Positions 4,717 to 60,136 of a DNA stretch of 64,000 bases are shown here, piece after piece. The position numbers and the translations under genes were made by a program. Location: the NCBI GenBank assembly GCA_964635995.1, contig CAZWRA010000001.1, positions 226 to 64,225 of the forward strand, written 5' to 3'. The DNA is from an uncultured Candidatus Saccharibacteria bacterium. GTDB taxonomy: Bacteria; Patescibacteriota; Dojkabacteria; J137. The number at the start of each line of letters is the position of its first letter. The stretch's first letter is position 1. The notes beneath the pieces were generated by a model that did not search any database, was not told the DNA's origin, and worked only from the letters and a program-made list of their open reading frames with translations.

Positions 4717-5394
4717 GTGTCAAGAGGTAAAAAACTTACAATTGCAGTTCTTTTAGTTCTAACGCTTGCTTTAGCAGCTATCTCAACTTACGTAGCTCTA
4801 ACTTTAAATTCCGAACGAACTCCAGATGTAGGAGTTTCTGGATTTGGAGATTATGCAACTAGAGATTTATACGAGAACATAACTGTTTTCTTCGGAGGGA
4901 AAGACTGTGATGAATTTCTAAATAGTAATTTTTTTACTAATCAGACATTTGATAATTCGACTGTGTTTTCTTTCTCAAGTATTGAGAATAATTTAGAGGA
5001 TTTCGGTGCCTATGAATATCTTCCAACTTCATGTTCATATGTTTTACAAAATGATAATCGATTAAATTTCTTAGTTTATTCTTATGACTATGACTCATTT
5101 ATTGCAGAGTCAAGAGAAGAACTTTACTCAAGAATAAATGTTTTTGATCAAGTTCTAGATGAAGGAACATTTTCTAATACTGACTATTTTTTTGGAATTG
5201 AAAATGACAAATGTGTAACTCATTTCTTTCAATTAGATAATGAATTTGAGTATGCAAGATTAGAATACAACGTGGGTGAGTTAGATTGTTCAACTTTAAT
5301 AGAAGATAATAAAGCATTTAGTTCTAGAATATCTAGTGAATTAAATGAAACTGTTGAAACTGTAGAATATGTTACTAAATTAGAGTCAATATAA
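4717..5394 (+). CDS. Secreted / membrane-anchored protein with N-terminal signal-anchor; unknown function; likely co-transcribed with the downstream Cys-rich surface protein (TAATG overlap)
   Basis: GTG start directly after the upstream stop. N-region SRGKK followed by a hydrophobic h-region. Acidic, aromatic-rich mature part. Confidence 0.45.
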   Translation: MSRGKKLTIAVLLVLTLALAAISTYVALTLNSERTPDVGVSGFGDYATRDLYENITVFFGGKDCDEFLNSNFFTNQTFDNSTVFSFSSIENNLEDFGAYEYLPTSCSYVLQNDNRLNFLVYSYDYDSFIAESREELYSRINVFDQVLDEGTFSNTDYFFGIENDKCVTHFFQLDNEFEYARLEYNVGELDCSTLIEDNKAFSSRISSELNETVETVEYVTKLESI

Positions 5395-8300: not shown

Positions 8301-8435
8301 GTTGTTACAGGAATAGTTGTATATAAACTAAACATTGGTAAATTAGCTGTAAGTGGACTAGGTGGAATCTCAATTCCAACTTCAAAAAGTTCATTTGAAA
8401 AGAATGCTCTTGGAGATATTAAAAAGAAAAAATGA
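5394..8435 (+). CDS. Giant cysteine-rich cell-surface protein: N-terminal signal anchor, about 600 aa of tandem 6-Cys EGF-like/Cys-knot-like modules, a Myxococcus-type cysteine-rich repeat (CGDGxxxxxEECD…), DUF11-type (conserved repeat domain) Ig-like repeats, C-terminal VPETA + TM + basic tail
   Basis: Repeated modules C-x4-6-SD-x-D/Q-C-x2-GQ-x-C-x4-6-C (e.g. CVSDGQCGSTQYCDLNFRKC, CTRRSDCNVGQYCESGTC, CSFDSDCTNGQICSPTTKTC). CGDGVVNGPEECDYNSPGSENCDTNC matches the DUF4215/Myxo cys repeat. INYTIRVTNTGPVEGTITEVTDTLD matches the DUF11 signature. Hydrophobic C-terminal segment LYVIFGSLLVVTGIVVY. Confidence 0.7.
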   Translation: MNNKILLLLGILVLFVGGILSFLFVQGGGKLPFDAGVSSCANPADFPCGPITCPDGTTFGSDPCTPAGFGSCGAREAQACAGHQGGGGNTCSGAGNAGACGTVGQVVAYSGGTCICTRTTGTLCACVPSNGSGCVHVNDGCNSVGESCSKGGQYGTCINNGNETVNGVVGIKCSCKVAPVQGSVCGNGSCEQGETNQSCPTDCNSECGNGTCNAGENVNNCPADCTSNGDQQCVSDGQCGSTQYCDLNFRKCLSKKGENGSCSASNQCLNGDCVDGLCAKTCTRRSDCNVGQYCESGTCRAAKANGANCGTADECISRICEGGLCLAQGTGTSGCSFDSDCTNGQICSPTTKTCITPGTNNDCTSNSECAAGYICASNRCRQEVDDSDPNVSCVSGRYYCGPDFGCALGSGKICNNGSISGSTCTVADACAYQVQSGNVSPGGSCVGVTRLSAGESSRGGFVGCNGTQNCFCPHQSGVGVGGIYSGGSVTCFEDIGGDSCGATDNPEPPITGGNQPICSQSCSTSNPCSDGTSCINGVCRNPDCPNDADCSCNTTLPICNQTCNQNNCADGTSCVNGTCQNPSCLNDADCICSIDSTPYCGDSICQAGETCERATAGSSNFRDCTTNILVPECRGIATQPPTPAGVCNYCGDGVVNGPEECDYNSPGSENCDTNCTQTISACISLEENGPDPLRSGEGNVVEYTLTYSQSGTGNPFPSIVLRVGPAGGAVGRDANNTTSALVRPFAVPAANDTGNTKTYKFLWEAAETNGNAVADGTYDVRVLLQGTDSTAISTAACQETITVSSTTTQSTVFTIVKSSAEVCLSNGDARINYTIRVTNTGPVEGTITEVTDTLDSDVVSAGIIPSNINPTYGTYSSGVITWVGSATDRTYTSGQSKTFTYDLTIPAALVPSFTQRGVDNEATVRHENNVSTHEVNTPVSCTIKVPQKKVPETAVFSDPSLYVIFGSLLVVTGIVVYKLNIGKLAVSGLGGISIPTSKSSFEKNALGDIKKKK

Positions 8436-32478: not shown

Positions 32479-32927
32479 TATAAATTTATAACTCCTGAAG
32501 AGTTAATAATTAAATTTATTGAACTTGATCCGCTCGTTAGAACAATACTACCAGTTCCTACTGGTCTATAGTCTCCTTGATTAAATCTAAGTTCATTTCC
32601 TGTCGCATTAAATACAGCACTTTCTATACTTATTCCAAAAGGTAATTCTTTAACTTGAGTCTCAGTTGCACTAGCTAAATTATTTCCTGTAAAAAGTGTA
32701 TAACTTTCCTCAGCAAAAGATATTCCAAAAGATGAATCGTCAAGACCTGAATAAGCATTTTGTTGTTGAACAAATATATCTGAACTTATTCTTCTGGCTG
32801 TATTCGTTAGATCATTTCTTCTAAATTCGTTAGCTGCTACAGGAACAAACAAAAACCCAGCTAAAGAGACTATAGCCAAAACTAGAATAAGCTCAATTAT
32901 AGTAAACGCATTCTTCTTATCCGACAT
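32478..32927 (-). CDS. Minor type IV pilin
   Basis: Class III signal: KKNAFTIIELILVLAIVSLAGF (Phe+1, Glu+5). Confidence 0.7.
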   Translation of the reverse strand: MSDKKNAFTIIELILVLAIVSLAGFLFVPVAANEFRRNDLTNTARRISSDIFVQQQNAYSGLDDSSFGISFAEESYTLFTGNNLASATETQVKELPFGISIESAVFNATGNELRFNQGDYRPVGTGSIVLTSGSSSINLIINSSGVINL

Positions 32928-34060
32928 TAATACTTCCTGTTAACTGATAGATAGGTCCTACAATAATAATTGCTAGGAAACCAATCATTGCTCCAATAAA
33001 TACTAATAAAATTGGTTCTAATAATGTCGATAGATTGTTTGAAAGCTCTTCAACTTCTTCAGCATGATATTCATATAAATAACCTAAATTTTCTTCAAGA
33101 GTACCAGTACCTTCCCCCAACCTCAATCATTTTTATAAAGGAAGGAGGAAAATACTTTGGGTAGAAAAGTAGTGAGGATGCAACTGACTTTCCACTTTTT
33201 ACCTCATTTGCAACATCTTTTAAGGCTTTTTTATAGTAAGTGTTACTTACAGTGCCTGTTGCAATATCAAGAGCTGATACTAATGGAATCCCTGTTTCTA
33301 AAAGAATACTTAGTGTTCTTGCAAATGAAGCTAAGATGTTATGTTGTGTAAGTTTTTTAATTACAGGAAATTTTAATGAGAACCAGTCTTTAAACTTTTT
33401 TCCAGATTTTGATCTTAAGAACATAATAAAAAGAAAAATTGCTAATGCTAATCCTCCAGCTAGAAATAAAGCATTTGTACGTATAAATGCAGAAGCAGCA
33501 AGTATCCCTTTTGTTAAAGGTGGAATATTTTCAAAAGATGTAAAAAGCTCTTCAAGTTTTGGCAAAATTAAAAATATTACTCCAAGCATTTCAACAAAAG
33601 TCAGCATAAATACAATCGCAGGATAGATTAGAGCTCCTTGAACTTTTTTTTCCAAGAGTGTGTGCTTTCTTTAAATAATCAGAAAGAAAAAAAGGTTTTT
33701 CCCAAAGTGCCTTCCTGCTCACCAACAGAAATTACAGACATGATAATGTCTGAAAAAACTTTTGGATACTTTCTCATTGAATCAGACAAAGTCATTCCAT
33801 CACTAATCATGCCAGCAATTTCAATGTATTTTTTGAAAGTCTTTCGTCAGCAGTTTGTTCAGAAAGAGTAAGAACTGCATCATTCAAAGCAAGTCCAGAT
33901 CGTAACATAAGATATAGATTTCTTATTGAAACCAAAACTGCAAGTTTAGGTATACCACTAAAATAAATCTGTCCTCCTTTTTTCTTTTTTTGGGTAGTTT
34001 TCTCTCTTTAGCCATTATTCTTTTAATGCAGTTACTCTCATTAATTCAGATAATGAAATC
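32917..34060 (-). pseudogene. pilC: Type IV pilus / T2SS platform protein PilC/GspF, disrupted by at least two frameshifts (pieces 32917..33126, 33095..33655 and further fragments 33660..34060 in other frames)
   Basis: GspF-domain motifs in three different frames. They are …LETGIPLVSALDIATGT… …FPPSFIKMIEVGG, then LEPILLVFIGAMIGFLAIIIVGPIYQL, and upstream fragments …IRNLYLMLRSGLALNDAV… / ISDGMTLSDSMRKYPKVFSDIIMSVISVGEQEG. ORFs 33095..33655 and 32917..33126 overlap by 32 nt. Confidence 0.7.
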
Positions 34061-34065
34061 ACTCC

Positions 34066-35297
34066 TTATCTTAATTTCTCAACACCATCTTCAACAATTA
34101 ATTTAAGACCTTGTCTTCTTGCTTCGTTATAAATTTGATCAGTGTCAGCTCCAGCCATTATAATTTTTCTTATGCTTTCAGTAATTTCTAATACTTCATA
34201 AAGACCAATTCGGCCTTTGTATCCATTTTCTACAGATCCTTCAGGTACATTTGGTGCAAATAATTTTTCCCCAACTTTTAAATATGCAGCTAAGTCGGGT
34301 CTATATACTTTTAGTTCTTCATATTCTTCATTTGTTAACCTCACTTCCTTCTTTTATTGTTCGTCAATTTTTCTAGCTAAACGTTGCGCTATAACAACAT
34401 TTACTGTTGTTGCGAGTAAGTATGGTTCTACACTCATATCGATAAGTCTAGGAATTGTAGTTACAGCATCATTAGTGTGAATAGTAGATAGAACTAAGTG
34501 CCCTGTCATTGCGGCATTAGTTGCAATTTTAGCTGCCTCGGAATCTCGAATCTCTCCAATCATAATTACATTAGGATCCTGTGTCTTAGAATTGATCTCA
34601 GTCCGTTACTGAATGTTAAACCAGCCTTTTTGTTAACTTGAACGTGATTTATTCCATTAATTTCATATTCTACTAGATCTTCAACTGTAGTTATATTTAT
34701 ATCTCTAGAATTTATTGTTGTTAAAATTGCGTAAAGAGTTGTTGTTTTACCAGATCCTGTTGGACCTGAAGCAAAAATCGATCCATAAGGTTTTTTAAAT
34801 GCTTTTTTAACAATTTCATAATCTTTATCTCTTAGTCCTAAATCTTCAAGTTCAAATGATCTACCTTTTTGTGTTAAAAGTCGAATTATAACTTTCTCGC
34901 ATTTAGCTGTTGGAAGAATAGAAATTCTTGTATCTAACTTATCCTCAAAATCAAAAGCAATTCTTCCGTCTTGTGGCGCGAAATGTTCATCAGTTCGAAG
35001 CTTTGCATTAACTTTAATTTTAAATACTAATGTTTCTTCGTATCTTTTTTCTATTGTATAAAGGTCTTTTAAAATTCCATCTATTCTATATCGAACAACC
35101 ATATTATCTTCATGAGGTTCAAGATGGATATCAGAAGCACCTTTATTTAAAGCCGTTAAAACTATATCATTAAGCATTCCTGTTATACCTCTTTCCTTAC
35201 CATCCTGTTTCCCCTCTTCAATTAATGGTGCATCATCGGATTGTATTATCTCTTCTTCTTTTATAGATGTGTTTAATGACTTCTTGGCCATAATCAT
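34066..35297 (-). pseudogene. pilB: Type IV pilus assembly ATPase PilB/GspE split in three pieces (34566..35297, 34354..34563, 34066..34344) by one frameshift and one in-frame TAA
   Basis: Piece 1 ends …[18 protein letters not shown] but the -1 frame reads [14 protein letters not shown], joining Walker B. Walker A is GPTGSGKTTTLYA and the His box is [13 protein letters not shown]. Pieces 2 and 3 are in the same frame, separated by TAA (…ARKIDEQ*KKEVRLTNEEY…). C-terminal piece has GYKGRIGLYEVL. Confidence 0.8.
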
Positions 35298-35312
35298 AGT
35301 TTAGAATAAATA

Positions 35313-35345
35313 AAAAAAGACCTCAACAATTGAGGTCTTTTAAAT
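35313..35345 (-). terminator. Rho-independent terminator hairpin downstream of the major pilin gene (perfect 8-bp stem GACCTCAA/TTGAGGTC, loop CAAT, flanked by A-run and T-run; potentially bidirectional)
   Basis: Plus-strand sequence aaaaaaagacctcaacaattgaggtcttttaaa between the pilin stop (35362) and the pilB start (35297). Confidence 0.55.
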
Positions 35346-35361
35346 TCTTTTATTTAAGAGT

Positions 35362-35823
35362 TTATCGAGAAACTGAGATTGTAGTACCTTCTGCATCCGG
35401 TGCTGCGATTGTTACTCTTCCACTTGCTTCTTCGCAAATTGTATAACCTGTATCAGCTCCAGTTCCTGTTGAAGGATCCTGAGGAATTCCTACAATGTAT
35501 GTAGGTGTTAATGCTGTAGCAAGATCAGCATCTCCAGTTCCAATAACATCAGTTAATGGACAAGCTTGGAAAGAACCTCCAACAACTCCAGCAGCTGTTG
35601 CTAGTGAGTCTAAGTCGTTTCCTTGTTCTGAAGTATATTGTGTTACAGCATTTAGAATCTGTAATACATCTGAACTTCTTTGTGCATTTCTTGTGTCTCT
35701 AAAGTTTCTTGCAGGGTTAATTGCAATAAATGTAATTGTTGCAAGAATTGCAATTAAAGCAACAACTACAAGGATTTCAATAAGTGTGAATCCTTCTTTA
35801 TTTTTTTCTTCATTTTTATTCAT
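35362..35823 (-). CDS. pilA: Type IV major pilin (PilA-like)
   Basis: Canonical prepilin leader and N-methylation motif KEGFTLIEILVVVALIAILATI (G-1, F+1, E+5). 153 aa. Confidence 0.85.
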   Translation of the reverse strand: MNKNEEKNKEGFTLIEILVVVALIAILATITFIAINPARNFRDTRNAQRSSDVLQILNAVTQYTSEQGNDLDSLATAAGVVGGSFQACPLTDVIGTGDADLATALTPTYIVGIPQDPSTGTGADTGYTICEEASGRVTIAAPDAEGTTISVSR

Positions 35824-35927
35824 GAAAAACTATAGATAAAAAGTAAAATTTTGATCTCTTTATACATTCAGTATATGAAGGTAAAATTATGAAGTCAACA
35901 AATATTTTTAAGAATTAAGATTTTATA

Positions 35928-36200
35928 ATGGCCTTGTATTATAGAATTGAATTTAATAAGCAAATTAAAGCCGAGGAATTAGGAATAATTCTTAGTAAAA
36001 TTAATTCGTTTATAGGACCTATAGGTATAAATATCTCCGATTTTAATGATGAAAACTTTGAAACTGATAAAGTATTAAAGAAAGAGGGTTACAGTGATGA
36101 AATGCTTTGGATAAATGAGGGAGATTTTTTTAATTATCTTGAAGGTTATCTTAAGATTTTCTTTAAGGAGAAAATTGGAGCAAAAAAGACACTTATTTAA
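35928..36200 (+). CDS. Small hypothetical protein
   Basis: 90-aa ORF, no motif. Confidence 0.3.
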   Translation: MALYYRIEFNKQIKAEELGIILSKINSFIGPIGINISDFNDENFETDKVLKKEGYSDEMLWINEGDFFNYLEGYLKIFFKEKIGAKKTLI

Positions 36201-36485
36201 AAGAGTTCAAAAGATCACTTTTAATTTTAAATAAGGAAGAGTTAAATTTAGATATTGAGAAAATATTAATCCAAGAAGGACAAATGTTAAAAAAGGAAAA
36301 CTGGGTTGAAATACCTGATTAAATCTTTTTATCAAAGTCTTAAGCTCATCTCGTCATAGGTTTGTAAGTGTCTAATTGTGTGTTGCACATGTTTATTTAA
36401 TTAGTAAATTAAAAGAATGATTAAAAATTTCTATTCAAGTATCTTTTTTCTCTAGCCTAGCCAGACGAAGCTTTAGCGTAGGAGA

Positions 36486-36502
36486 ACGGAGAAGACAGGA
36501 TT
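36486..36502 (-). repeat. 17-nt exact copy of the 3' end (acceptor/T-arm) of the adjacent tRNA-Ser gene (cggagaagacaggattc); further degenerate tRNA-like fragments at about 36526..36616
   Basis: The same 17-mer occurs at 36678..36694 as the 3' end of tRNA-Ser. 'cttcgtaaaactcag' (36526) and 'cttcgtaaactcag' (36580) resemble the tRNA variable arm 'ttcgtaaaacg'. 'cagagtcgaacct' (36603) resembles the T-arm. Confidence 0.5.
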
Positions 36503-36677
36503 CCCTTATTTAAATTCGATCCTATGCTTCGTAAAACTCAGCATGATCTCATTTAAAATGGATCTCGATTTTCTTCGTCTTCGTAAACTCAGACAGAAAA
36601 TCAGAGTCGAACCTTCAGTTCTCAACTTTATCTATCTTTTGAATTTCATAACCACTTTGTGGTATGGAAATTATAAA

Positions 36678-36763
36678 CGGAGAAGACAGGATTCGAACCT
36701 GCGTTTCGTAAAACGAAAACATCGTTTCCAACGATGCGCCTTAAACCGCTCGGCCACCTCTCC
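36678..36763 (-). tRNA. tRNA-Ser (anticodon GGA), class II with long variable arm
   Basis: Manual fold: acceptor GGAGAGG/CTTCTCC, 3-bp D stem, anticodon stem CATCG/CGATG with loop TTGGAAA, 17-nt variable arm hairpin (TTTCG-TTTTA-CGAAA), T-arm GCAGG-TTCGAAT-CCTGT, discriminator G. Confidence 0.85.
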
Positions 36764-36804
36764 AAATCGAGTAATTATAACATTTCTAATGCTCTACAAT
36801 TCTC

Positions 36805-37146
36805 TTAAAAGCGTTTAAATCTATATCTAAGTCTTGTAATTAACCCTTCTTTAATTGATGAATTACTATCTAGGTCACCTGTCATTAAACAGTACGTATA
36901 TTCATAAAGATATTTTCCAGAAAGAGATAAAGCATTTCCTAAATCAGTAGAAATAGTAGTCACATAAGAATAAAATCCTTCTCTAACTGTATATGAAGTA
37001 TATTTATCGTTCATTCCTTTAATCAAACCCATCATGTAAATATCAATCGTTTCTTTAATTTTGTTAGTATACTTCATATTTTTATTTTGCATTAAGATAT
37101 TCCTTGCATGAATATAAACATTTTCTATACTTCCAAACTCATCCAA
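36805..37146 (-). CDS. Hypothetical protein
   Basis: 113-aa ORF, no motif. Confidence 0.35.
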   Translation of the reverse strand: MDEFGSIENVYIHARNILMQNKNMKYTNKIKETIDIYMMGLIKGMNDKYTSYTVREGFYSYVTTISTDLGNALSLSGKYLYEYTYCLMTGDLDSNSSIKEGLITRLRYRFKRF

Positions 37147-37175
37147 TAGTCCTCAATAAAACTCATCTATTGTAA

Positions 37176-37949
37176 ATGATACTGTTTCTTGATCTGCAAT
37201 TTCTGTCATATAATCTAAATATGAATGAACTTAATTCACATAATTTCGATGCTAAAACGACACTTTTTAGTGGGCAAACATTTTTGTGGAGTAGACAAGG
37301 TAATGATTTAATAGGTTCTTTTAAGAATAAGATCATTATTTTGAGTGAGAGAAGAAATAAATGGTATTGGCAAACCTATCCCAATAAGGATGATTTTGAC
37401 TTTGTTAAAAATTATTTAAACTTAGATTTCGATGGTCAGAAGTTTATTACAAGTACAAATGATGAACATATAAGAAGTTCTTTTTCTAAATACCCAGGTT
37501 TAAGAGTTTTAAAACAACCTTTTGAAGAAACTATTCTCTCATTTATTCTTGCTTCGAATAAGAATATAAAAGCTATAAGAAAAACCTTTAATTTTCTTAA
37601 AGGAAAACAGAATAGATATATAAAAGTTGATAATAAGAAATACTTTTTCTTCCCTTCAATAGAATTTATTAATGATGTAGATATTTCTGTTTTACAAGAA
37701 TCGGGAGCAGGATATAGAGTTAAATATTTAAAAGATCTAGCTAATAAATTCGAAACAATAAAAACAAAAGGAGATTTTTCAGAAATAGCTAATTCACTAA
37801 AAAAAGTTAATGGAATTGGAGATAAAATTGCAGATTGTATAATGACTTTTTCATTAGGATTTAATAATATAACTCCTATAAATAGATGGTCTGAGCGTAT
37901 AATTACAGAACTTTATAATGATTTTTACTTTGAAAAAGTACTCAGATAA
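37176..37949 (+). CDS. ogg: 8-oxoguanine DNA glycosylase, OGG1 family (HhH-GPD)
   Basis: Colinear similarity to OGG1 blocks: TLFSGQTFLWSR (cf. LPSGQSFRW), ETILSFILASNKNIKAIRKTFNFL (cf. [24 protein letters not shown]), SGAGYRVKYL (cf. LGLGYRARYV), VNGIGDKIADCIMTF (cf. LPGVGTKVADCICLM, catalytic Lys conserved). Confidence 0.75.
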   Translation: MILFLDLQFLSYNLNMNELNSHNFDAKTTLFSGQTFLWSRQGNDLIGSFKNKIIILSERRNKWYWQTYPNKDDFDFVKNYLNLDFDGQKFITSTNDEHIRSSFSKYPGLRVLKQPFEETILSFILASNKNIKAIRKTFNFLKGKQNRYIKVDNKKYFFFPSIEFINDVDISVLQESGAGYRVKYLKDLANKFETIKTKGDFSEIANSLKKVNGIGDKIADCIMTFSLGFNNITPINRWSERIITELYNDFYFEKVLR

Positions 37950-37972
37950 AAGAGATTGGTTTACAAATAAAT

Positions 37973-38341
37973 TTGGCGAGAATACTGCTTACGCTGGTCA
38001 ACTTTTATTTGAATATATTAGAAAATATAATCCTAACAATTATTAAGAGTATGGGATGGTTTAGAAAATCAGATTGTATAGATTTTTATAAGATTCACGA
38101 AAGATTAAATTCATCGTCATTACTAACTCTTTTATGGCTTGCACATTCAAACATAACATTTAAAACTCCTACTGACATATCTACAATTGTAGGATACATT
38201 ACTGAAAATATAATAGCTAAAAGAATAATTGATGGATATGTAACACAAGAAGAAGTTGATTTTTTAAGAAATGATCTCTTATTTAATCCAACATATATAT
38301 GGAATACACAAAAAAATGAAACTATTACTAATGAGATATAA
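37973..38341 (+). CDS. Hypothetical protein
   Basis: 122-aa ORF, no motif. Confidence 0.35.
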   Translation: MARILLTLVNFYLNILENIILTIIKSMGWFRKSDCIDFYKIHERLNSSSLLTLLWLAHSNITFKTPTDISTIVGYITENIIAKRIIDGYVTQEEVDFLRNDLLFNPTYIWNTQKNETITNEI

Positions 38342-38347
38342 TTATTA

Positions 38348-39307
38348 ATGCAATCTTTATCACTTTCAAATCAAACAGTAGGAGATATTTTAAAAGAGAA
38401 AAGACAAGTTCTTGGTTTAAAACTTAGTACAATTGAGCAAGAATTAAAAATAAAAGAAAAATATCTTGCATACCTTGAATCAAATAGATTTCAAGCTTTC
38501 GAATCAAAAGTTCAAGCTAAAGGTTTTTTAAAAAATTACGCTCAGTTTTTAGGTTTAAATCATGAAATGATGGTCGCTCTTTATAGAAGAGATTTTGAAA
38601 ATAAAGACATGAAAAGAAAAATCGAAATTGAAGAGGAGAATGAAGAATTAGAATTAAAAAAAGAAAGCATTTTTTCAAATATTGTAATAAAAAAGAAACA
38701 TATCACAATTTTTACCTTACTTCTTATTGTTTTATTTACTACTCTTCTTATAGTAAATATTTTACAAAGAACATTTTCTAAACCAGAGCTAATTCTATTT
38801 GAGCCTTTTGAAATTTCAGGAAGTTATGAAGGAAAAATTGCTTACGAAGAGAATGACATAATTTTAAAAGGACAAATTGAAAAAGGAAGCTCAATACTTA
38901 TTAACTCGATTCCAATAAGCGTAAATTCTGAATATCGATTCGAATCGAACACAATTCCAACTACAGACGAAGAAACTTTAATTACAGTTACAACTGAAAA
39001 TTCTCTAGGAGCAAAAACTGAAATGAATCTTACTCTCTATAAGCCTGACAATAAGATAGAAAGCTTCAGTGCATTTATTTCTGCTGAACTTTATGTTGAA
39101 TATATGATAGTGAAATCTGATGGAATTGTAAGATATGAAGGAGGGTTTCTTCCAGGAGAGCCTTTAGATATAACAGCATTAGAAACAATCGAAATAGAAA
39201 CTCCAGATTTTCAAGATTTAGAAGTACAAATTATAGATGAGATTTATACCTTAGATACTGAATATAGTGTTTTTCGAAATACAACTAGAGAAATTATTAA
39301 AGAATAA
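38348..39307 (+). CDS. rodZ: RodZ-like cytoskeleton/cell-shape protein: N-terminal XRE-type HTH, one TM helix, C-terminal extracytoplasmic domain
   Basis: N-terminus TVGDILKEKRQVLGLKLSTIEQELKIKEKYLAYLESNRFQAFESKVQAKGFLKNYAQFLGL matches the RodZ HTH region, followed by TM ITIFTLLLIVLFTTLLIV. Confidence 0.6.
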   Translation: MQSLSLSNQTVGDILKEKRQVLGLKLSTIEQELKIKEKYLAYLESNRFQAFESKVQAKGFLKNYAQFLGLNHEMMVALYRRDFENKDMKRKIEIEEENEELELKKESIFSNIVIKKKHITIFTLLLIVLFTTLLIVNILQRTFSKPELILFEPFEISGSYEGKIAYEENDIILKGQIEKGSSILINSIPISVNSEYRFESNTIPTTDEETLITVTTENSLGAKTEMNLTLYKPDNKIESFSAFISAELYVEYMIVKSDGIVRYEGGFLPGEPLDITALETIEIETPDFQDLEVQIIDEIYTLDTEYSVFRNTTREIIKE

Positions 39308-39543
39308 TTATTTTTTCTTTTAATTAAATCTTTCAAAGAAAATAAACCCCAGACAAGATTAATAATTAGAAAAGGCCAAGAGCAAATTAAATAAGCATAA
39401 ACTGCCAGTAATGTTCCAGAAAGAAAGTTTAAAAAATCATATGTAAAGTCAGTATTTTTAAGTTTGTCTGTTTGATTAAGTATAAAAGCTGATAAAGTTA
39501 AAAATGCACCAGAAATTCCGATTAATTGAATTACTATTTCCAT
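39244..39543 (-). CDS. Small membrane hypothetical protein (overlaps 3' end of rodZ-like gene)
   Basis: 99-aa hydrophobic ORF. Could be spurious. Confidence 0.25.
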   Translation of the reverse strand: MEIVIQLIGISGAFLTLSAFILNQTDKLKNTDFTYDFLNFLSGTLLAVYAYLICSWPFLIINLVWGLFSLKDLIKRKNNYSLIISLVVFRKTLYSVSKV

Positions 39544-39584
39544 ATTTTTTATTCTTTAATATCTTCTGAATATTCTCTTAGATT

Positions 39585-40793
39585 TTAATACTTTTTTCCA
39601 ACTAAATTTTTAGGCATATACTCCTGTTCTACTTTCTTTCCATTTTTCTCCTCTAGCCAAGGATATCTCGTATGTCCTTTTCCATACCCATGCTCTTTCA
39701 TTACTTTATTTGGAGCATTTCTAAGATGAAGTGGAATTGGATCAAGAGGTTTATTATGAATATCGCTGATTGCATTACTTATGCCTTCAGTTACAGCAAT
39801 TGATTTAGGACAAGAAGCTAAGTAAGTAGCGCATTGAGCTAAGATTAATTTTGCTTCAGGCATACCGATCATATTAACAGCTTGCATTGTTGAGGTAGCT
39901 ACAACTAAAGCAGTAGGTTTTGCATTTCCGATGTCTTCAGAAGCAAATATAACCATTCTTCTTGCAATAAAAACTGGATCTTCTCCTGCTTCAATCATTC
40001 AAGAAAGATAATGAAGAGTAGCATCTGCTTTTCCTCCTCTCATTGATTTAATAAAGGCAGAAATAGTGTCGTAATGTGCATCTCCCTTTTTATCGTATAC
40101 ACCAAATTTTTGTTGAAGAATATCTGAAACAATCTCTCGAGTTATTTTTTTATTGATTTTAGAAGCGAATTCTAAAGCATTAATAATTTTTCTTGCGTCT
40201 CCGTCTGCAAATGCAATTAAAAACTCTATCGCATCCTCATCCCATTTAATCTTTTTTATCTCTTTATTTGCTCGATTAAAAACTTCTAAGCATTCTTCAT
40301 CGCTTAACTTTTCAAATCTAAATACTCGACTTCTTGAAATTAAAGGAGCATTAATTTCAAAACCGGGATTTTCGGTTGTTGCTCCAATTAAAATTATAGT
40401 TCCGTTCTCAACATAGGGAAGAAATGCATCCTGTTGAGCTTTATTAAATCTATGAATTTCATCTACAAATAATACTGTTTCTCTAGCTTCTTCAATTTTT
40501 CTATGTTCAGCTAACTTTACAATCTCTCTAACTTCTTTTATTCCTCCAGTTACAGCTGAAAATGAAACAAAGTGTGCTTCTGTATAGTTTGGAATTAATC
40601 TGGCTAAAGTAATTTTTCCACATCCTGGAGGTCCCCAAAAAATCATTGAAGAGATATTACCTGATTCAATAATTTTACGAAGAGGTTTGTTCTTTCCTAG
40701 AATATGTTTTTGACCAATGAATTCATCAAGATTCGTCGGCCTTAGACTTTCCGTTATCATCCTTCTTTCTACCTGATGTAAAAAGCGTAACAA
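39585..40793 (-). pseudogene. rarA: Replication-associated recombination protein A (RarA/MgsA AAA+ ATPase) interrupted by an in-frame TGA at 39999..40001; probable true start MITESLRP at about 40760
   Basis: N-terminal ORF has Walker A GPPGCGKITLARLI, Walker B VLFVDEIHRFNK, sensor motifs. The downstream ORF is contiguous and in-frame and encodes the MgsA_C domain (MIEAGEDPVFIARRM…PKSIAV…HLRNAPNKVMKEHGYGKGH). TGA aligns with a conserved Arg (…HYLS*MIEAGEDP vs …YLARMIEAGEDP). Confidence 0.8.
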
Positions 40794-40931
40794 GATCTTC
40801 AGGTTTTTTTGAAATTATTGATCTAAAGAAACCCATGAACTCATTATACTGCAGTCTATCTAAATACCTAAATACATAATTTAACATTGGGTCTGTATAG
40901 TTCTCTCCAGTCTCGACTCTAACTGTATTTC

Positions 40932-41594
40932 CTAATAAATCTTCTTTGAGCTTCGTCCAGTCTTTTGGTGTTTTTTATACCTTGGTACTCCTTTTTCTTC
41001 AAACTCAAAAAACTTTGTCTTACATGCTAACAAACCAATTATATCTAGAACATAATTACTAACATGTATTAATGGTAATGCCTGTTCTTCTGGACTACTT
41101 TGAGTTCTTAGTTGTTGTGAAATATAAAACCCTCTCGCAAGTTTAAACATAACAGGAAACGGTTTTAAATTCTCTACTTCAGCCCTCATTAAAACGACAC
41201 CTGTAATTCTTCTTTCATTAAAAATCTTTTTATCAAGCTCTCCTGTTGTTGAACCTCCAAAGAATATTCTAATTCTATGTGGATTATCTATGTCTGAGCT
41301 AAAACCAATGCTTGAAAATAGCTCAAGAAGATCATATGTACAAGATACTAGGTAAGCGGAAAATCTTTCGAGTTCAACTTCAGAAGTTGATCTATAAAAT
41401 GATGCAACTTGTTCAAATTTATCAATAACAGATTGATCTATTTCAACCCTAATTCCTAACCCATGTCCTTTAGAATCTAAGATAACTTTCTTGTCCTCTA
41501 AAAGAGCATTAACAGGATCCCTGTTAACTGCAGCAATTTCGACAGTTTCTCTTACTAAATCATTATCATCTGGGGGTTTAAGATCTGACATCAA
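40932..41594 (-). CDS. Hypothetical protein (220 aa); C-terminus may be truncated by a homopolymer (A6) frameshift, since an 80-codon stop-free continuation exists in the +1 frame
   Basis: No motif recognised. Downstream region 40794..40930 translates without stops in the +1 frame (…KDWTKLKEDLLGNTVRVETGENYTDPMLNYVFRYLDRLQYNEF…). Confidence 0.4.
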   Translation of the reverse strand: MMSDLKPPDDNDLVRETVEIAAVNRDPVNALLEDKKVILDSKGHGLGIRVEIDQSVIDKFEQVASFYRSTSEVELERFSAYLVSCTYDLLELFSSIGFSSDIDNPHRIRIFFGGSTTGELDKKIFNERRITGVVLMRAEVENLKPFPVMFKLARGFYISQQLRTQSSPEEQALPLIHVSNYVLDIIGLLACKTKFFEFEEKGVPRYKKHQKTGRSSKKIY

Positions 41595-41804
41595 AAAATA
41601 GCATCAATAATATTACATAGAGCACTGCAATATATTTTGAAAGTGTGATTTTGTCAAATTCTATCTAGTGTGAAAGTAGTTTTCCCATTATCAGCATTGG
41701 ATTACAAGCGACAATATGAGCAACAAATTCTAAAAGCTCTTCATTTTTAATATTATAAAAGAAACTTATAACTAAAGCATTTGAGTGAACTTAATTTGAA
41801 AAAA

Positions 41805-42110
41805 CTAATCGTGAAGAATTACTTCAAAAGCACCTTTACCTCCATTATAAAGGTTTGCAGATTTAAATTCAGAGACTAATTTGTTCTTTGGGAGAAGTTT
41901 TCTTACTAAAGGCCTTACTAACTTACCGTGACCAGTTATTACTAATAAGAATTTGTTTCCAAGTAAGTAATTATCTTCGATAAACTCAAAAAGAATTTTT
42001 TCAACTTCAAAAGGATCAAGTTTATCGTAAAGATGAAAATCCAGTTCGTTTTGTTGAAAGAAAAATGAGGTTAGATTATTCGATGAGTGATCTTTGTATT
42101 TATTAGCCAT
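41805..42110 (-). CDS. Smr-domain protein
   Basis: LDFHLY…LLVITGHGKLVRPLVRKLL…GGKGAFEVIL matches the Smr domain pattern (DLHG…IIHGKG…GG.G). Confidence 0.65.
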   Translation of the reverse strand: MANKYKDHSSNNLTSFFFQQNELDFHLYDKLDPFEVEKILFEFIEDNYLLGNKFLLVITGHGKLVRPLVRKLLPKNKLVSEFKSANLYNGGKGAFEVILHD

Positions 42111-43879
42111 TAATAAATCTCAAAATTTTCTAACAATTTTTTATCTCCCTCAATTTGGTATTTTAATAAATCTCTATAAATACCTTCTCTTGAAGAAAGT
42201 TCTTTAGGAGTTCCTGAATCAACAATATTTCCATCGCCAAGAACAATAATTTTATCTACATTTTGTATAGTTGAGAATCTATGAGCAATAATAATTACAA
42301 TCCTGTCTTTCATTAACGCATCCATTGCTGTTTGAACTTCATTTTCAGATTTTGAATCTAAATTACTAGTTGCTTCATCCATAATAACAATAGGTGTATT
42401 ATGAAGAATTGCTCGAGCAATTTGTATTCTTTGCTTTTGTCCACCAGACAATCTAACTCCTCTTTCACCAACTTGAGTATCTAACTTGTTTTCAAATTTT
42501 TCTACAAAATCCCATGCATTTGCAGCTTTTAGAGCGCTAATAATTTTTTCATCGCTAACTTCCATTCCATAAGCTACATTTTCTCTAATTGTTGTAGAAA
42601 AAAGCTCATTTTCTTGGAAAACTAATGATATCATTGATCTAACTTCATTATGTGAAAGATCATTATAATCCTTTCCATCTACAAGAATTGAACCTCCTGT
42701 AGGATCATAGAACTTCATAATTAGATTAATGATAGTTGTTTTTCCAGCTCCAGAATGACCTACTAAAGCTACTTTTTCATTTTCATTAATTGTAAAGTCA
42801 ATTTTTTTTAAAACATTTTTCTCAGATTTTTCATATCCAAAAGAAACATTTTTGAATTCAATTTTTCTTCCAACTAAATTCTCAGCAGAATATTCTTTAT
42901 CATATTGTTCAACTTGTTCAAGATCTAAAATTTCAAATAATTCTTTCGTTCCAGCTTCAGTCTGTTGAATCTGAGTTAAAATAAATGACATAGCGAAAAG
43001 AGGGATTCTTGCCTGCATTATAAGCTGAGTTAAAAGAAAGACATCTCCGAATGTATAGTTCCCAATAAAAGCATTATAAAAAATCACAACATTCATTCCT
43101 AAAAGAATCAATTCTAAACTGAAATTTCTAAGAAAATCAAAAATATGAAATGTTCTACTTTGTTTTGCAAAAATTTTATTAACTTCTACTTGTTCAGAAT
43201 CTACAAAGTCATATTCTTTCTTTTGATTTATATAGCCTTTAACTAACTTCATATTAGTTATAACTTCCTGAATTCTTCCTCTTGTTATATCTTCATGTTT
43301 ATTTTTACCTACTTCTTTCTCTCCCCATTTCTTAGCAGAATACTGACTTAAACCTATGTAAATAGGGAATAGAAGCAATGTAAACATAGCAACAGGTGGA
43401 CTAAATACAAACATAGTCACTACTGTAAAAATGCTTAACAGAATATTAGGGAAAATAAAATTTGAAGCTGTATTCATAAACCCTTGAACTGCAACAATAC
43501 CTCTATTTAGCTGGTTAACTATTTTTCCTGAAATTTCGGTATCAAAGTAGCTTTGAGGAAGTCTGAAGATATGGTTATAAAATTTTGTAATTAAAAATCT
43601 TCTTAATTCTCCTCCAAAATGGTCTCCAATTCTTTGTGAAATTGAACCTAGTGCAATGTTAAAAATACTTAATCCAAATCCTATACCTATAAATAAAAAC
43701 ATCTTATTTATACTCGCATCTCCAGTTTCTATTTGTAATTGAATCTCATCTACAACAACTTTTGAAATAATAGGAATTATCTGTCTTAATAATGAAGTAA
43801 AGATAGAAAGCCCAAGTATAGAGTACATAACTTTATGTAATGGCTTAGAAATTTTTATAAGTCTGACTATGTTTTTCAT
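42110..43879 (-). CDS. ABC exporter, fused permease + ATPase (MsbA/LmrA-like)
   Basis: 6-TM N-terminal domain. Walker A GHSGAGKTTIINL, signature LSGGQKQRIQIARAIL, Walker B VIMDEATSNLD. Confidence 0.9.
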   Translation of the reverse strand: MKNIVRLIKISKPLHKVMYSILGLSIFTSLLRQIIPIISKVVVDEIQLQIETGDASINKMFLFIGIGFGLSIFNIALGSISQRIGDHFGGELRRFLITKFYNHIFRLPQSYFDTEISGKIVNQLNRGIVAVQGFMNTASNFIFPNILLSIFTVVTMFVFSPPVAMFTLLLFPIYIGLSQYSAKKWGEKEVGKNKHEDITRGRIQEVITNMKLVKGYINQKKEYDFVDSEQVEVNKIFAKQSRTFHIFDFLRNFSLELILLGMNVVIFYNAFIGNYTFGDVFLLTQLIMQARIPLFAMSFILTQIQQTEAGTKELFEILDLEQVEQYDKEYSAENLVGRKIEFKNVSFGYEKSEKNVLKKIDFTINENEKVALVGHSGAGKTTIINLIMKFYDPTGGSILVDGKDYNDLSHNEVRSMISLVFQENELFSTTIRENVAYGMEVSDEKIISALKAANAWDFVEKFENKLDTQVGERGVRLSGGQKQRIQIARAILHNTPIVIMDEATSNLDSKSENEVQTAMDALMKDRIVIIIAHRFSTIQNVDKIIVLGDGNIVDSGTPKELSSREGIYRDLLKYQIEGDKKLLENFEIY

Positions 43880-45291: not shown

Positions 45292-45894
45292 TTATTCAAA
45301 AGAAGACATAAAAACATTGTTATTTTCAAAAGCATTTAAGTTTAGTACTTTAGGAAATACGTAAAAAACTATTCCTTCATACTCGTATATAGAAGATAAA
45401 TCTCCCTCAATATAATCTTTTTCAGGCACATCTACAGTAAATACATGGGCTTGTCTAATATTACTCCAGAATTGAAATACAGGAACTGAGCTTTGTGAAG
45501 ATTGTGTAGTCTCTGCACAATAAGCTACTGCCTCATAATCCCAATTAGGATTTGTGTCTTCAATATATTCTTTCTCAGCTTCAGAAGGTGTATAGAAATG
45601 AACTTCTTTAGAAGGATTATAGAATCTATAAACTTCTGTTCCATTACTACAAGATCCATCGAATTTGTAAGCTTCTAATACAATCCCTTCGTAATTCCAG
45701 TTTGGATTAGTATTTTTAACGTATTCTGCCTCAGCTGAATCAGCAGTATAGAAGTGCGCTAGGGAGACGGGGCTATAAAATCTATAAATAGGGGTTGTTG
45801 CTTCTTGCGCATTAACTTTATTAATCCCTAAAACAATTGTTAAGAAAAGAAAGGATAGGGAGACTATTATCGAAAACAAAAACATCTTTTTCAT
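45292..45894 (-). CDS. Secreted protein with three DUF5648-type repeats (YRFYNP…HFYT…E…NWxYEGI)
   Basis: Signal peptide MKKMFLFSIIVSLSFLFLTIVLGINKVNA. Three repeats resembling the clostridial cell-wall-protein DUF5648 motif (RLYNPnsGeHFYT…GWkYEGia). Confidence 0.65.
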   Translation of the reverse strand: MKKMFLFSIIVSLSFLFLTIVLGINKVNAQEATTPIYRFYSPVSLAHFYTADSAEAEYVKNTNPNWNYEGIVLEAYKFDGSCSNGTEVYRFYNPSKEVHFYTPSEAEKEYIEDTNPNWDYEAVAYCAETTQSSQSSVPVFQFWSNIRQAHVFTVDVPEKDYIEGDLSSIYEYEGIVFYVFPKVLNLNAFENNNVFMSSFE

Positions 45895-46083: not shown

Positions 46084-46097
46084 TTACTAAAAGTTTA

Positions 46098-46436
46098 TGC
46101 AAAAAGAAGTTTTCATAAAAGCAAAGAAAATTATTAATAATCCAGACATTATTATTGATATGTTTACTTCAACATTTGAATGGATAAGCCCAAATGCACT
46201 TGATATATTTAAATATGAGTAAAGTGAGATTATAGGAAAAAAGCGACAACTTTAGTAACTGCAGAATTAGATGAAGCTATAAAGATACTGTTAGATTTAA
46301 TAAAGTCAAAAAAAGGAACTAGAGAGATAGAATTTGTAGATGGCTTAGGTCATAAAATAAGAATTAATGCTGATTTTCAAGTTTTAACTTTTAATAAAGT
46401 TCCCTATCTTATTGCTAAAATCATTTCAATAAAATA
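46098..46436 (+). pseudogene. PAS-domain protein remnant (in-frame TAA plus a frameshift at an A6 run)
   Basis: MQKEVFIKAKKIINNPDIIIDMFTSTFEWISPNALDIFKYE*SEIIGKK then +2 frame ATTLVTAELDEAIKILLDLIKSKKGTREIEFVDGLGHKIRINADFQVLTFNKVPYLIAKI, a PAS-like fold pattern. Confidence 0.5.
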
Positions 46437-46452
46437 AATTTTAAAGAAGACT

Positions 46453-47438
46453 ATGAAAGTTAAGCTTAAAGAATTAGAGTCAATCACACTAAACGCTGTA
46501 AAGAAGTATTGGTATAAGGATAATGAGGCTGAAATAATCAAAAAAGTCTTACTTTATGCTCAGTTAAGAGGTAATAATCAAGGCATAGTAAAGTTGATTG
46601 GAAATGGTATTCCAAGAATTGAAACGGGAAAAGAACCTACTATTGAGAAAGAAACTAAAGTCTCAGCTTTACTAAATATGGAAATTATACTCATGCTATG
46701 GTTGTTATGGATAAATTAGTAGATATAGCAACTAAGAAAGCAATTGAAATAGGAGTAGGAATTGCAGGGAACCACGATACAAGTGAGTCAACTGGAGCAC
46801 TAGGATATTACGTTAATAAAATTGCAGAACAAGGCTTAATCGGAATTGCATTTGCATCTGCACCGTTTCAAACAAACGCCCCTTTTGGAGCAAACGAGGC
46901 AAGATTTTGTACAAATCCACTAGCTTTCGGAATTCCCACTGAGTCTGATCCAATAATTTTAGATATGCCCACTTCAGCTATGGCTTATTATGGATTAATT
47001 GAGGCTAAGACTGCAGGGAAAAAACTTTCTGACAAAGTAGGATTCGATAAAAATGGTAATGAAACTAATGACCCTGCAGAAATAATGTCTGGAGCGCTAA
47101 AAACATTTGGAGGACATAAAGGTTCAGGACTCGCTTTAATTGTCCAAATTTTAGCAGGAGCTTTTGTTAAAGCGGACTCATTTAATAATGATAGTGACAA
47201 CGCTGGTAATCTAGTCGTTCCTATTGATCCAGAGATATTTTTAAGCAAAGACGATTTTAGGAAAAGTGTTACAGAAATAATTAATAAGGTTAAATCCGCA
47301 AGAAGAATAGATAATGTTGAAGAGATTTTTATTCCTGGAGAACGAGGAAATAATTTTCAAAATGAAGTTGTTACTTCAGGCGAAATTGAGATTGAAGATA
47401 ACTTATGGACTGAATTACAAAAAGTTGTTAATTCTTAA
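46453..47438 (+). pseudogene. Ldh_2 family (malate/L-lactate/sulfolactate-type) dehydrogenase split by a frameshift near 46700
   Basis: C-terminal ORF has the Ldh_2 hallmark GGHKGSGLALIVQILAG. N-terminal ORF (46453..46719) supplies the N-terminal domain. ORF2 frame read back gives …NGNYTHAMVVMDKLVD, overlapping ORF1. Confidence 0.7.
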
Positions 47439-48736: not shown

Positions 48737-49558
48737 ATGAATGACCATAGATTTAATCATTCTGAAGATGATATACAACCAATATCACAAAGAGAAAGAA
48801 TTGATAACTATGTCTCTAAAGGTCTTGTACCTCCTTCAGATATACGACTACTCTATCAATTAAATCAAGGACAGTATACATATTATGGAGCGGAAGGACA
48901 TAGAAGCGAAGTTATTCAAAGACTGACAAGAGATTTAGTCCATACTATGAACGTAGCTATGCGATGGACAGTAGAAAGAGGGGTGACATGGGAGAATGCA
49001 ATGTCAGCAAGTCTTATTTTTGGTCCAGCATTTACTGATGATTTTAAAGAAATTATTCCTTTAGTTCTTAATGCATACGAAGGTTCTACAGTAAATTTTC
49101 TTACACATGTTCATTTAGTTGCAGGCGGTTATGCAGCACAAGCAGCAGAACTTGCATTAGAGAATTTAAGGTCAGTAGGATTTCGTTATAATATGATTTC
49201 TGATGATTATTATTTAACTATAATTCGGGAATTAGGATTAGTAAGTTCTCAAAATAATAAATTAAATAAGGTATTAAAAGGATTAAGTTTCAACTCAGAT
49301 CCAAATGTATTTGCTGCTGAGGCTTTAATCCGACTTGAATCTAAATACATTATTCAGGATTTCAGAAGAATGGTTACGAAGGAAGGAGGTTACGTTTACT
49401 GTCCTGCCTCAACTGTTATGAGAAATGTTGCTTTATTAACTGTTTATAACATGTACCTATATAAAAAAGATAAATCTATAATAAAGTTAAGTAAAAACCT
49501 TCTTGTTGAAAAAGATATACTCGTACTTAAAGACTTATTTTTAAGCAGTATTACTTGA
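48737..49558 (+). CDS. Hypothetical protein (273 aa), convergent with the small-gene cassette
   Basis: No recognisable motif. Locally higher GC codon usage (Ala/Gly-rich). Confidence 0.4.
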   Translation: MNDHRFNHSEDDIQPISQRERIDNYVSKGLVPPSDIRLLYQLNQGQYTYYGAEGHRSEVIQRLTRDLVHTMNVAMRWTVERGVTWENAMSASLIFGPAFTDDFKEIIPLVLNAYEGSTVNFLTHVHLVAGGYAAQAAELALENLRSVGFRYNMISDDYYLTIIRELGLVSSQNNKLNKVLKGLSFNSDPNVFAAEALIRLESKYIIQDFRRMVTKEGGYVYCPASTVMRNVALLTVYNMYLYKKDKSIIKLSKNLLVEKDILVLKDLFLSSIT

Positions 49559-49786
49559 CTCTTTCAATTCTTCTAAAATTTTCTCGTATTGAGTAATTTT
49601 TTCCCTTACACCTTCAATAGTTTGACTAAAGGAGAAATGATCATTTTCAGTTTCACCATCATCTTCCTTACTGAGTCTACTCTTTGGAATGGTCATCCAT
49701 CCCAATGGAAAGTCTTGATCAAACTCAGAACCTAACTGTTCTAATAATCTCTCATAACCTTGTAGTCTAAGATGTGTAAGTTGCAA
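49541..49786 (-). CDS. Small protein paralogous to the 91-aa ORF at 50323..50598; in-frame with the upstream 167-aa ORF across a TGA
   Basis: MQLTHLRLQGYERLLEQLGSEFDQDFP vs ELTIQGFEKLLELLGEDFDISIP. TTG start. ORF 49796..50299 ends TGA, then three codons ENK, then this ORF in the same frame. Confidence 0.35.
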   Translation of the reverse strand: MQLTHLRLQGYERLLEQLGSEFDQDFPLGWMTIPKSRLSKEDDGETENDHFSFSQTIEGVREKITQYEKILEELKESSNTA

Positions 49787-49795
49787 CTTATTTTC

Positions 49796-50299
49796 TCAAT
49801 CTAAAATCCTAGCCTCTGTTATAAAATTTGGAGGAAGATTTCCATTTCTTTGTTTTTCCAGAACCGTTTCAATTGAGAGAGGAAGATTTACAGAGATATT
49901 TCTAAATTCATTCAAAAGAGCATTATAAGCCGAATATGATTGAGATGCGTGAGAGCCATCCGAAGGAATTGTTGCAAATATATTTCTTAGGCTTTCAGCT
50001 AATCTATCGGTTGAGGTAAGTAAGGCACTTTTCACTTTCCCTTTTTTCTCATCTACAAAAAGAGTAAAATCTTCAGGATTAAATAAATTTAGTTCCGGAT
50101 TAGTAGTTCTAAAAAAAAGTTTAGTATGTGTTGAAGATAAATAAACTGTGCCATCGTCCAGCATAGTTCCTACTTTTCCTAATACTCCCTGTTCATTATC
50201 ATATGTATAAACCCTGTCTCGAGGTATTTCTATAGTTGCATCTCCAAATCTAACTGTTAAATCATCTGTTGATAATCGTTTGTCTACTAAATCCGTCAT
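49796..50299 (-). CDS. Hypothetical protein (167 aa)
   Basis: No motif. C-terminal …NEFRNISVNLP resembles the N-terminal region of the 91-aa paralogue (…SAFRNDLEYY). Confidence 0.4.
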   Translation of the reverse strand: MTDLVDKRLSTDDLTVRFGDATIEIPRDRVYTYDNEQGVLGKVGTMLDDGTVYLSSTHTKLFFRTTNPELNLFNPEDFTLFVDEKKGKVKSALLTSTDRLAESLRNIFATIPSDGSHASQSYSAYNALLNEFRNISVNLPLSIETVLEKQRNGNLPPNFITEARILD

Positions 50300-50322
50300 A
50301 TTGAAATTATAAAAAATAATTT

Positions 50323-50598
50323 TTATGTCTTTGTAAATTGATTAATTAAATCTTCCGATTCTGTAAGCATATTTTTGTATATTTCAAAATCCTCTCTTAA
50401 ATTTCTAACTAAATCTTTAAATGGTTCAGCTTTTAATGTTTCAGGTATACTGATGTCAAAATCTTCTCCAAGTAATTCTAAAAGTTTTTCAAATCCTTGT
50501 ATTGTTAGTTCATAATATTCTAGATCGTTACGAAAAGCACTAATTGCTTCAGGAGTAATCTTTGCAGGTAGAGTGAACGTTGGGTCTGCTTCTTTCAT
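50323..50598 (-). CDS. Small hypothetical protein (91 aa), paralogue of 49541..49786
   Basis: Shared motif L-x2-(I/L)QG(F/Y)E(K/R)LLE-LG-x-(D/E)FD. Confidence 0.4.
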   Translation of the reverse strand: MKEADPTFTLPAKITPEAISAFRNDLEYYELTIQGFEKLLELLGEDFDISIPETLKAEPFKDLVRNLREDFEIYKNMLTESEDLINQFTKT

Positions 50599-50662
50599 TT
50601 TTAGTCTTCCATGATATGCGTGTAATAGTCCGCTATAAATAGGACCATAAAAGTTTCTAAGT

Positions 50663-51040
50663 TCAGCAACTATATTTTATATATGTGATAACCAGGCATA
50701 TCAATTCTAATTCTTCGTTAAACAAAGGGCTGATCTGTTCTGCGAGTATTTCAACGTCTACTGATAATGCTAAGGATTTTTCACCGGATGGTGTTATCAT
50801 AAGAATGAAATCACTACTAGTAAATGATTTTGCTAATCTTTCTATTGAACTTGTATCCATATCTTGTGATCCTAACATTGACATAGTATGAGAATTAGCA
50901 AGATTTATAAGCGTCCCACCTTTTGCTATAGTTCTTTCCCTAAAAATCTGGAATTGATCTGTAGTAGGATTAGTAACTTGATAAATATCTTCTTGATGAA
51001 TTTGATCATATATTCCTTCGATACCTGTTTCATTTACCAT
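50663..51040 (-). CDS. Hypothetical protein (125 aa), weak resemblance to Roadblock/LC7-type domains
   Basis: Size and alternating hydrophobic pattern only. Low confidence. Confidence 0.35.
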   Translation of the reverse strand: MVNETGIEGIYDQIHQEDIYQVTNPTTDQFQIFRERTIAKGGTLINLANSHTMSMLGSQDMDTSSIERLAKSFTSSDFILMITPSGEKSLALSVDVEILAEQISPLFNEELELICLVITYIKYSC

Positions 51041-59752: not shown

Positions 59753-60136
59753 CTATAACTGGAACAAATCCAATTCTAAGATGAATGTTAAAATTTTTTC
59801 TGAGAATTTTTGTGTATCTCTTAAAACATCGCAAGCTTTATCAACATATTCAGGAGGAATAAGTATTGTCGACCCATCTCCACCAAAAACAAAAGGAAAT
59901 TCAATATTTTTATCAATATTCAAAACAGCAGTCGTTGCACAAGAGGCTACAAAATTTACATCATGATATCTTCCTTCATCAATAGCAATAGTGGAGCCTT
60001 TTACATCTGAGACTACAACAAACCAGTCAACAGGAGCATCCCTGAAAAGACGTTCGTTCGTTATATCTTTAAACTCTTCCACATAAGGAAGATCGTTGTA
60101 GAAATACGTACTTTTCACAATTTTTAATGTCACCAA
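59753..60136 (-). CDS. Truncated nucleotidyl-cyclase-like (DUF3095-like) N-terminal fragment; downstream 240 bp contains further coding-like pieces in other frames
   Basis: FVVVSDVKGSTIAIDEGRYHDVNFV … FPFVFGGDGSTILIP resembles the class III cyclase-like fold core. ORF only 127 aa. Stop-free stretches in other frames to 59520 (e.g. …LKCVWQDIPSKKDEIVILLI). Confidence 0.3.
   Translation of the reverse strand: MVTLKIVKSTYFYNDLPYVEEFKDITNERLFRDAPVDWFVVVSDVKGSTIAIDEGRYHDVNFVASCATTAVLNIDKNIEFPFVFGGDGSTILIPPEYVDKACDVLRDTQKFSEKILTFILELDLFQL

Follow-up and report, generated by a model that had tools for sequence, protein, structure and literature searches.

An in-frame TGA in rarA very probably marks a recently inactivated pseudogene in a region of decaying genes

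Introduction

Is a single TGA within an otherwise well conserved bacterial gene a nonsense mutation, or is it decoded? The question arises from a 64-kb stretch of DNA, the whole of which we call the window, on whose minus strand the open reading frames (ORFs) 39999..40793 and 39585..39998 encode the two parts of a RarA/MgsA protein. As described in an initial annotation of this DNA, the two ORFs are contiguous and lie in one frame, the TGA at 40001..39999 being their sole separator, and two readings of that codon had been put forward: a very recent CGA>TGA nonsense mutation, or stop-codon read-through or recoding.

When a lone UGA stands in frame within a gene of a CPR genome, an alternative code readily comes to mind. 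UGA encodes Trp in translation table 4, which is used by Mollicutes and some endosymbionts, and Gly in table 25, which is used by the CPR lineages Gracilibacteria and Absconditabacteria; under such reassigned codes UGA is frequent within most genes, where it aligns with Trp or Gly. Here we present evidence for standard decoding and for an ordinary pseudogene: in all likelihood, rarA was recently inactivated, bears several lesions and lies in a locus of gene decay, in a genome read with the standard code.

Results

Extent, domains and relatives of the interrupted rarA gene

The full ancestral extent of the rarA/mgsA pseudogene, delimited with Pfam, homologue identity and tblastn, is 39549..40760 on the minus strand, running from an ATG at 40760 to an ancestral TAA stop at 39551..39549. 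This ATG is the start that matches the homologues, the TTG at 40793 being only the first start picked by the ORF lister. When the RarA proteins from the loci of two relatives that we compared with the window (L003, GCA_964437465.1; L004, ERZ25072999) were used as tblastn queries, one frame covered 40760..39558. Pfam recognised AAA (E = 2e-14), RuvB_N and AAA_assoc_2 (E = 2e-25) in the upstream ORF and MgsA_C (E = 7e-47) in the downstream ORF; as the latter match begins only at profile position 14 of 167, the TGA cuts inside MgsA_C and not at a domain boundary. The joined protein is RarA/MgsA, with a 332-bit match to Escherichia coli MgsA (PDB 3PVS); its Walker B motif (LFVDEIHRF) is kept, the AAA+ lid domain is also present, and the order of AAA+, AAA_assoc_2 lid and MgsA_C is the same as in the RarA proteins of Ca. 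Dojkabacteria (P0001, P0002, P0003 and P0004) and in E. coli MgsA. Unlike intact RarA/MgsA proteins, the window gene has GKI in place of GKT, a TGA where a conserved Arg is expected and a TAA that ends it too early, at an invariant Tyr, and it lacks an MgsA_C that is continuous, in one frame, with the AAA+ module.

Its best homologues, RarA proteins of 397-403 aa that are all intact, have identities of 81, 77, 75 and 73%, the first of these values being reached by P0001 over 100% of the length. Each of the best 120 homologue matches covers 99-100% of the query, and none is interrupted. The window, L003 and L004 have in common the gene order ABC transporter-Smr-(hypothetical)-RarA-CBU_0592-HTH_25, followed by the gene for an 8-oxoguanine glycosylase (OGG). 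Judged by this synteny and by the similarity over its full length, the gene belongs to the RarA family by descent. P0002 and P0004 are labelled Candidatus Dojkabacteria (CPR/Patescibacteria) by their source, and on sequence grounds the host genome is Dojkabacteria-like (CPR). A scan of genome contigs with the RarA protein returned, among the matches listed, only distant RarA genes of at most 62% identity; the 90% identity clusters of the two RarA halves have one member each, so that by this measure the split is shared by no other genome.

Three lesions at conserved columns of rarA

The TGA had initially been taken for the only defect of rarA, a view that did not survive alignment with the 120 homologues. 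At columns conserved to at least 97%, the cut-off by which we judged them, three deviations are found in the window alone: T50I, R254* and Y392*.

The first concerns the Walker A motif, where the codon at 40611..40613 (minus strand) is ATT (Ile) while Thr occupies this column in 120/120 homologues. GPPGCGKT has thereby become GPPGCGKI, which no longer conforms to the P-loop pattern GxxxxGK[ST]. In P-loop NTPases the hydroxyl group of the Walker A Thr coordinates Mg2+, and T50I is therefore predicted to inactivate the ATPase of RarA.

The second is the TGA itself (39999..40001, minus strand; HYLS*MIEAGEDP), which is followed directly by an ATG codon. That it replaces a conserved arginine, as had been stated, was borne out by Arg in 119/120 homologues, the remaining one having Trp. 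At this site the relatives carry AGG (L003) and AGA (L004), so that the ancestral codon was probably AGA/AGG and not CGA. Of the proposed CGA>TGA nonsense mutation, the nonsense part thus stands and the CGA origin does not; to judge from the codons of the relatives, the likely change is A to T in AGA.

The third is another nonsense codon, a TAA at 39585..39587 (minus strand) in place of the invariant Tyr392 (Tyr in 120/120), where the window protein ends in KKY* as opposed to KKYY in the homologues. Past this TAA the frame continues for 11 codons (NLREYSEDIKE) to a further TAA, and this stretch is still alignable to the tails of the relatives, as in L004 RarA, which reads NFKKYSEDDTN before its stop.

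The presence of three lesions in a gene that is intact in the relatives supports the nonsense-mutation (pseudogene) option. By the proposed mechanism, three point changes would have arisen independently of each other: Thr to Ile in the Walker A P-loop, at the residue that coordinates Mg; AGA/AGG to TGA at Arg254, a conserved site within MgsA_C; and TAY to TAA at Tyr392, which is invariant. Translation would end at the TGA and give a 253-aa AAA+ fragment, predicted to be ATPase-dead and to lack the C-terminal oligomerisation domain. We infer from these changes that rarA has lost its function.

TGA acts as a stop codon in the window

A tabulation of TGA positions had been suggested as a check, and we ran it on the 64-kb window. 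TGA never occurs in frame in the 44 intact ORFs (0 in 16,037 codons), whereas the other two frames hold 157 and 927, as fits a simple pseudogene; Trp in these ORFs is encoded by 122 TGG codons. The ORFs stop at TAA (34), TGA (5) and TAG (5). TGA was indeed found to terminate other genes at homologue-consistent lengths, as the initial annotation had claimed: in two genes, whose ends are at 51521 and 49558, the TGA stop lies at most 1-2 codons from the ends of the L003 homologues. L004 RarA, too, terminates at TGA. One gene named in that context, rnpA, was not found among the TGA-terminated window ORFs scanned with Pfam.

Reassignment of UGA in this CPR lineage, genome-wide or codon-specific and either similar to tables 4 and 25 or as a new UGA-to-Arg code, would also account for the interrupted frame. 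Akin to genomes with UGA-reassigned codes, the window is AT-rich (about 31% GC), CPR-affiliated and has one UGA within a conserved gene; moreover, a TAA or TAG often follows close behind the TGA stops, and some CPR lineages (the Gracilibacteria and Absconditabacteria mentioned above) do reassign this codon. Unlike in such genomes, UGA is absent from the 16,037 in-frame codons despite being common out of frame, sits at an Arg column and is still a terminator, closing 5 of the 44 ORFs as well as the RarA of L004, and Trp relies on its 122 TGG codons. None of the window's three tRNAs (Gln-CTG, Ser-GGA and Ala-GGC) has a UCA anticodon; prfB does not occur in these 64 kb either. The other candidate for an in-frame TGA, codon 168 of the ORF 49541..50299, belongs to an orphan: among 5.8 billion proteins this ORF has no homologue except itself. 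As far as 64 kb shows, global UGA reassignment is refuted, and we give reassignment of any kind only the slimmest of chances.

Recoding of the selenocysteine type is not supported either, as no SECIS or other recoding element was detected by Rfam even at E <= 1, and the affected column holds Arg (119/120) or Trp (1) in the homologues, not Cys or Sec. The option of read-through or recoding raised at the outset is thus not supported, in contrast to a nonsense mutation under the standard code: in-frame TGA is missing from the intact ORFs, TGA ends are consistent with homologues, and of the four nonsense lesions in this region three are TAA codons.

The orphan ORF just mentioned appears in the window as a 167-aa ORF with a TGA stop (49796..50299), beyond which the same frame runs on for 84 more codons. 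It is part of a region of ~1.5 kb with orphan ORFs (49541..51040, minus strand) that is missing in L003.

Broken and intact genes around rarA

Lesions in the neighbours of rarA were called by tblastn with the proteins of relatives and by Pfam coverage. The most heavily damaged of these genes encode components of the type IV pilus. A pilC (T2SSF) pseudogene (32926..34014, minus strand) has at least four frame changes, at about 33828, 33700, 33650 and 33117, some of them at runs of A8, A6 and G5. The adjoining pilB (T2SSE ATPase) pseudogene (34015..35297, minus strand) has one frameshift, at a CACA repeat at about 34581..34584, and two TAA codons, at 34354..34356 and 34066..34068, where L003 has TAC and GCG, respectively. 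Both pilB and pilC are intact in L003, which has two pilin paralogues; the pilin gene of the window (35362..35823), beside the broken pilB and pilC, is intact. A deletion of the N-terminal 65 residues of PilC was considered and rejected, the N-terminus of the L003 protein being a Q/P-rich low-complexity extension.

Closer to rarA, the OGG gene (37176..38037, plus strand) has a frameshift at about 37903..37919 that leaves the C-terminal ~44 residues out of frame, and the gene for a 290-aa hypothetical protein upstream of rarA (40726..41594, minus strand) has one at about 40959..40971, at an A6 run, tblastn giving one HSP in frame -3 and another in frame -2; the C-terminal part of this gene and the start of rarA overlap, likewise in L003. 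On the other side of the ABC transporter gene, the homologue of a 113-aa gene (46097..46428, plus strand), which has no Pfam family in L003 and there adjoins a PAS_9 gene, carries a frameshift at about 46210..46237. An Ldh_2 gene (malate/L-lactate dehydrogenase family; 46453..47438, plus strand) falls into two parts near 46698..46719, which match Pfam positions 1-77 and 85-333 in different frames. At 59753..60136 (minus strand), adjoining the 3' end of dnaE, a DUF3095 match extends over profile positions 1-105 of 378 only and looks like a truncated remnant.

The disabling changes number about fifteen over eight genes, the three in rarA included. Interspersed among the damaged genes are intact ones, namely those for pilin, HTH_25, CBU_0592, Smr, a 589-aa ABC transporter and a DinB-like IMS protein, and housekeeping genes elsewhere in the window are intact as well (PheS, a 1007-aa UvrD/PD-(D/E)XK helicase-nuclease, YchF, pyrophosphatase, Mfd, UvrA and DnaE). 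Between the ABC transporter gene and the tRNA-Ala gene, the window has a 2.1-kb insertion relative to L003 (43880..46008), which contains a gene for a DUF5648 protein (45292..45894), another for a protein of 206 aa that matches DUF6923 weakly, and a 653-nt stretch free of ORFs.

Most of the lesions recur in a second assembly, and they are clustered by gene

Errors of sequencing or assembly in a low-coverage metagenome, with all true genes intact, could produce a picture of this kind, and many of the frameshifts indeed coincide with short homopolymers or with repeats (A6, A8, G5 and CACA). Illumina reads, however, rarely show indels at runs of 5-8 bases. The sequencing run in which the organism occurs, SRR10095374, was an Illumina NextSeq550 run that belongs to PRJNA564648, a study of thermal-swamp sediment (PMC8027834). 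Two Logan contigs, assembled independently from this run, are 100% identical to the window over 39480..43760 and 33434..38416, that is, over 9.2 kb holding most of the lesions, and they reproduce those of rarA, the 290-aa hypothetical gene, pilB, OGG (in an identical contig, L085) and part of pilC, so that two assemblers agree on them, although the Logan assembly was probably made from the same reads.

The distribution of the lesions provided further evidence against errors. The 13 point lesions are confined to 7 of 62 genes, where random placement would hit a mean of 11.2 genes, and length-weighted random placement gave seven or fewer genes hit with P about 0.002. The lesions stack within genes (at least four in pilC, three each in pilB and rarA), four of them are stop-creating substitutions, and the other coding sequence, which amounts to about 50 kb and has six ORFs of 850-1197 aa in it, is free of lesions. 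Such a multi-hit pattern is the signature of pseudogenes and not of random errors, and we regard an artefact as improbable.

Exact-protein look-ups with both RarA halves and with neighbouring proteins placed the organism in one sample only, SRR10095374, and a DNA pattern spanning the TGA had 0 matches in the metagenome contigs scanned. With one sample to go by, we presume that these lesions have become fixed in the population and do not belong to a minority haplotype.

Possible residual function of rarA

RarA could still work if the TGA were bypassed, either by leaky read-through of UGA-A by tRNA-Trp (yielding R254W) or by termination and reinitiation at TGA-ATG (yielding a two-piece RarA); the TGA lesion would then be tolerated and not simply inactivating. 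Since an ATG directly abuts the TGA, a separate MgsA_C polypeptide is conceivable. Substitution by Trp has a natural precedent in P0078 (L086 1001..2203), a full-length CPR RarA that occurs on 4 contigs from different runs and has Trp (TGG) at the Arg254/TGA column. A Shine-Dalgarno-like motif was present within 20 nt upstream of only 4 of the 25 window gene starts inspected, which suggests that this genome relies little on Shine-Dalgarno-led initiation, as it appears, so that the lack of such a motif before the internal ATG is not decisive. The part downstream of the TGA, moreover, shows no decay, with 2-7 unique changes versus 5-10 in the sister, and a relative-rate test on the RarA branch found no excess of replacements, a result that tells nothing about a recent event when the branch is long; the absence of acceleration fits recent inactivation and would also fit continued function.

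On the other hand, T50I, at a column with Thr in 120/120, should abolish ATPase activity with or without read-through, so that read-through would not restore a normal protein, and the second stop removes a conserved C-terminal Tyr. The TGA falls within MgsA_C (profile position 13-14) and not at a domain boundary. No stimulatory RNA structure was found, the 86-nt stretch around the TGA and beyond it downstream folding no better than shuffled sequences (z = -0.33), and the neighbouring genes are plainly decaying. We thus consider it very unlikely that rarA still works.

Discussion

The reading that we prefer, a recently inactivated rarA under the standard code, extends to its surroundings. At about 32.9-47.4 kb, selection would have been relaxed on pilB, pilC, ogg, rarA and Ldh_2 as well as on two genes of unknown function, all of which would then have acquired nonsense codons and/or frameshifts, the latter often at short homopolymers, while the essential genes interleaved with them would have stayed intact. 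An active wave of gene loss may be hitting type IV pilus (pilB and pilC) and DNA-repair (ogg and rarA) genes together.

Pseudogenes with multiple lesions are known from Mycobacterium leprae and from recently host-restricted symbionts. Akin to pseudogenes of the M. leprae type, those of the window have several frameshifts or nonsense codons per gene, indels at short homopolymers and AT-biased stop substitutions, and intact essential genes are interspersed among them, a comparison that rests on 64 kb of the genome only. The CPR lineage is usually described as streamlined, and it is therefore somewhat unusual, and of modest interest, to see multiply hit pseudogenes clustered among the pilus and DNA-repair genes of a small CPR genome. 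For annotation, rarA, pilB, pilC, ogg, Ldh_2 and three others should be flagged as pseudogenes, with neither split proteins nor a switch of translation table.

Elsewhere in the window, the 1013-aa protein encoded at 5394..8435 (plus strand), whose gene ends at TGA, has weak matches to the cysteine-rich Dickkopf_N and to DUF7107 and DUF11; this large protein is probably secreted or located at the surface.
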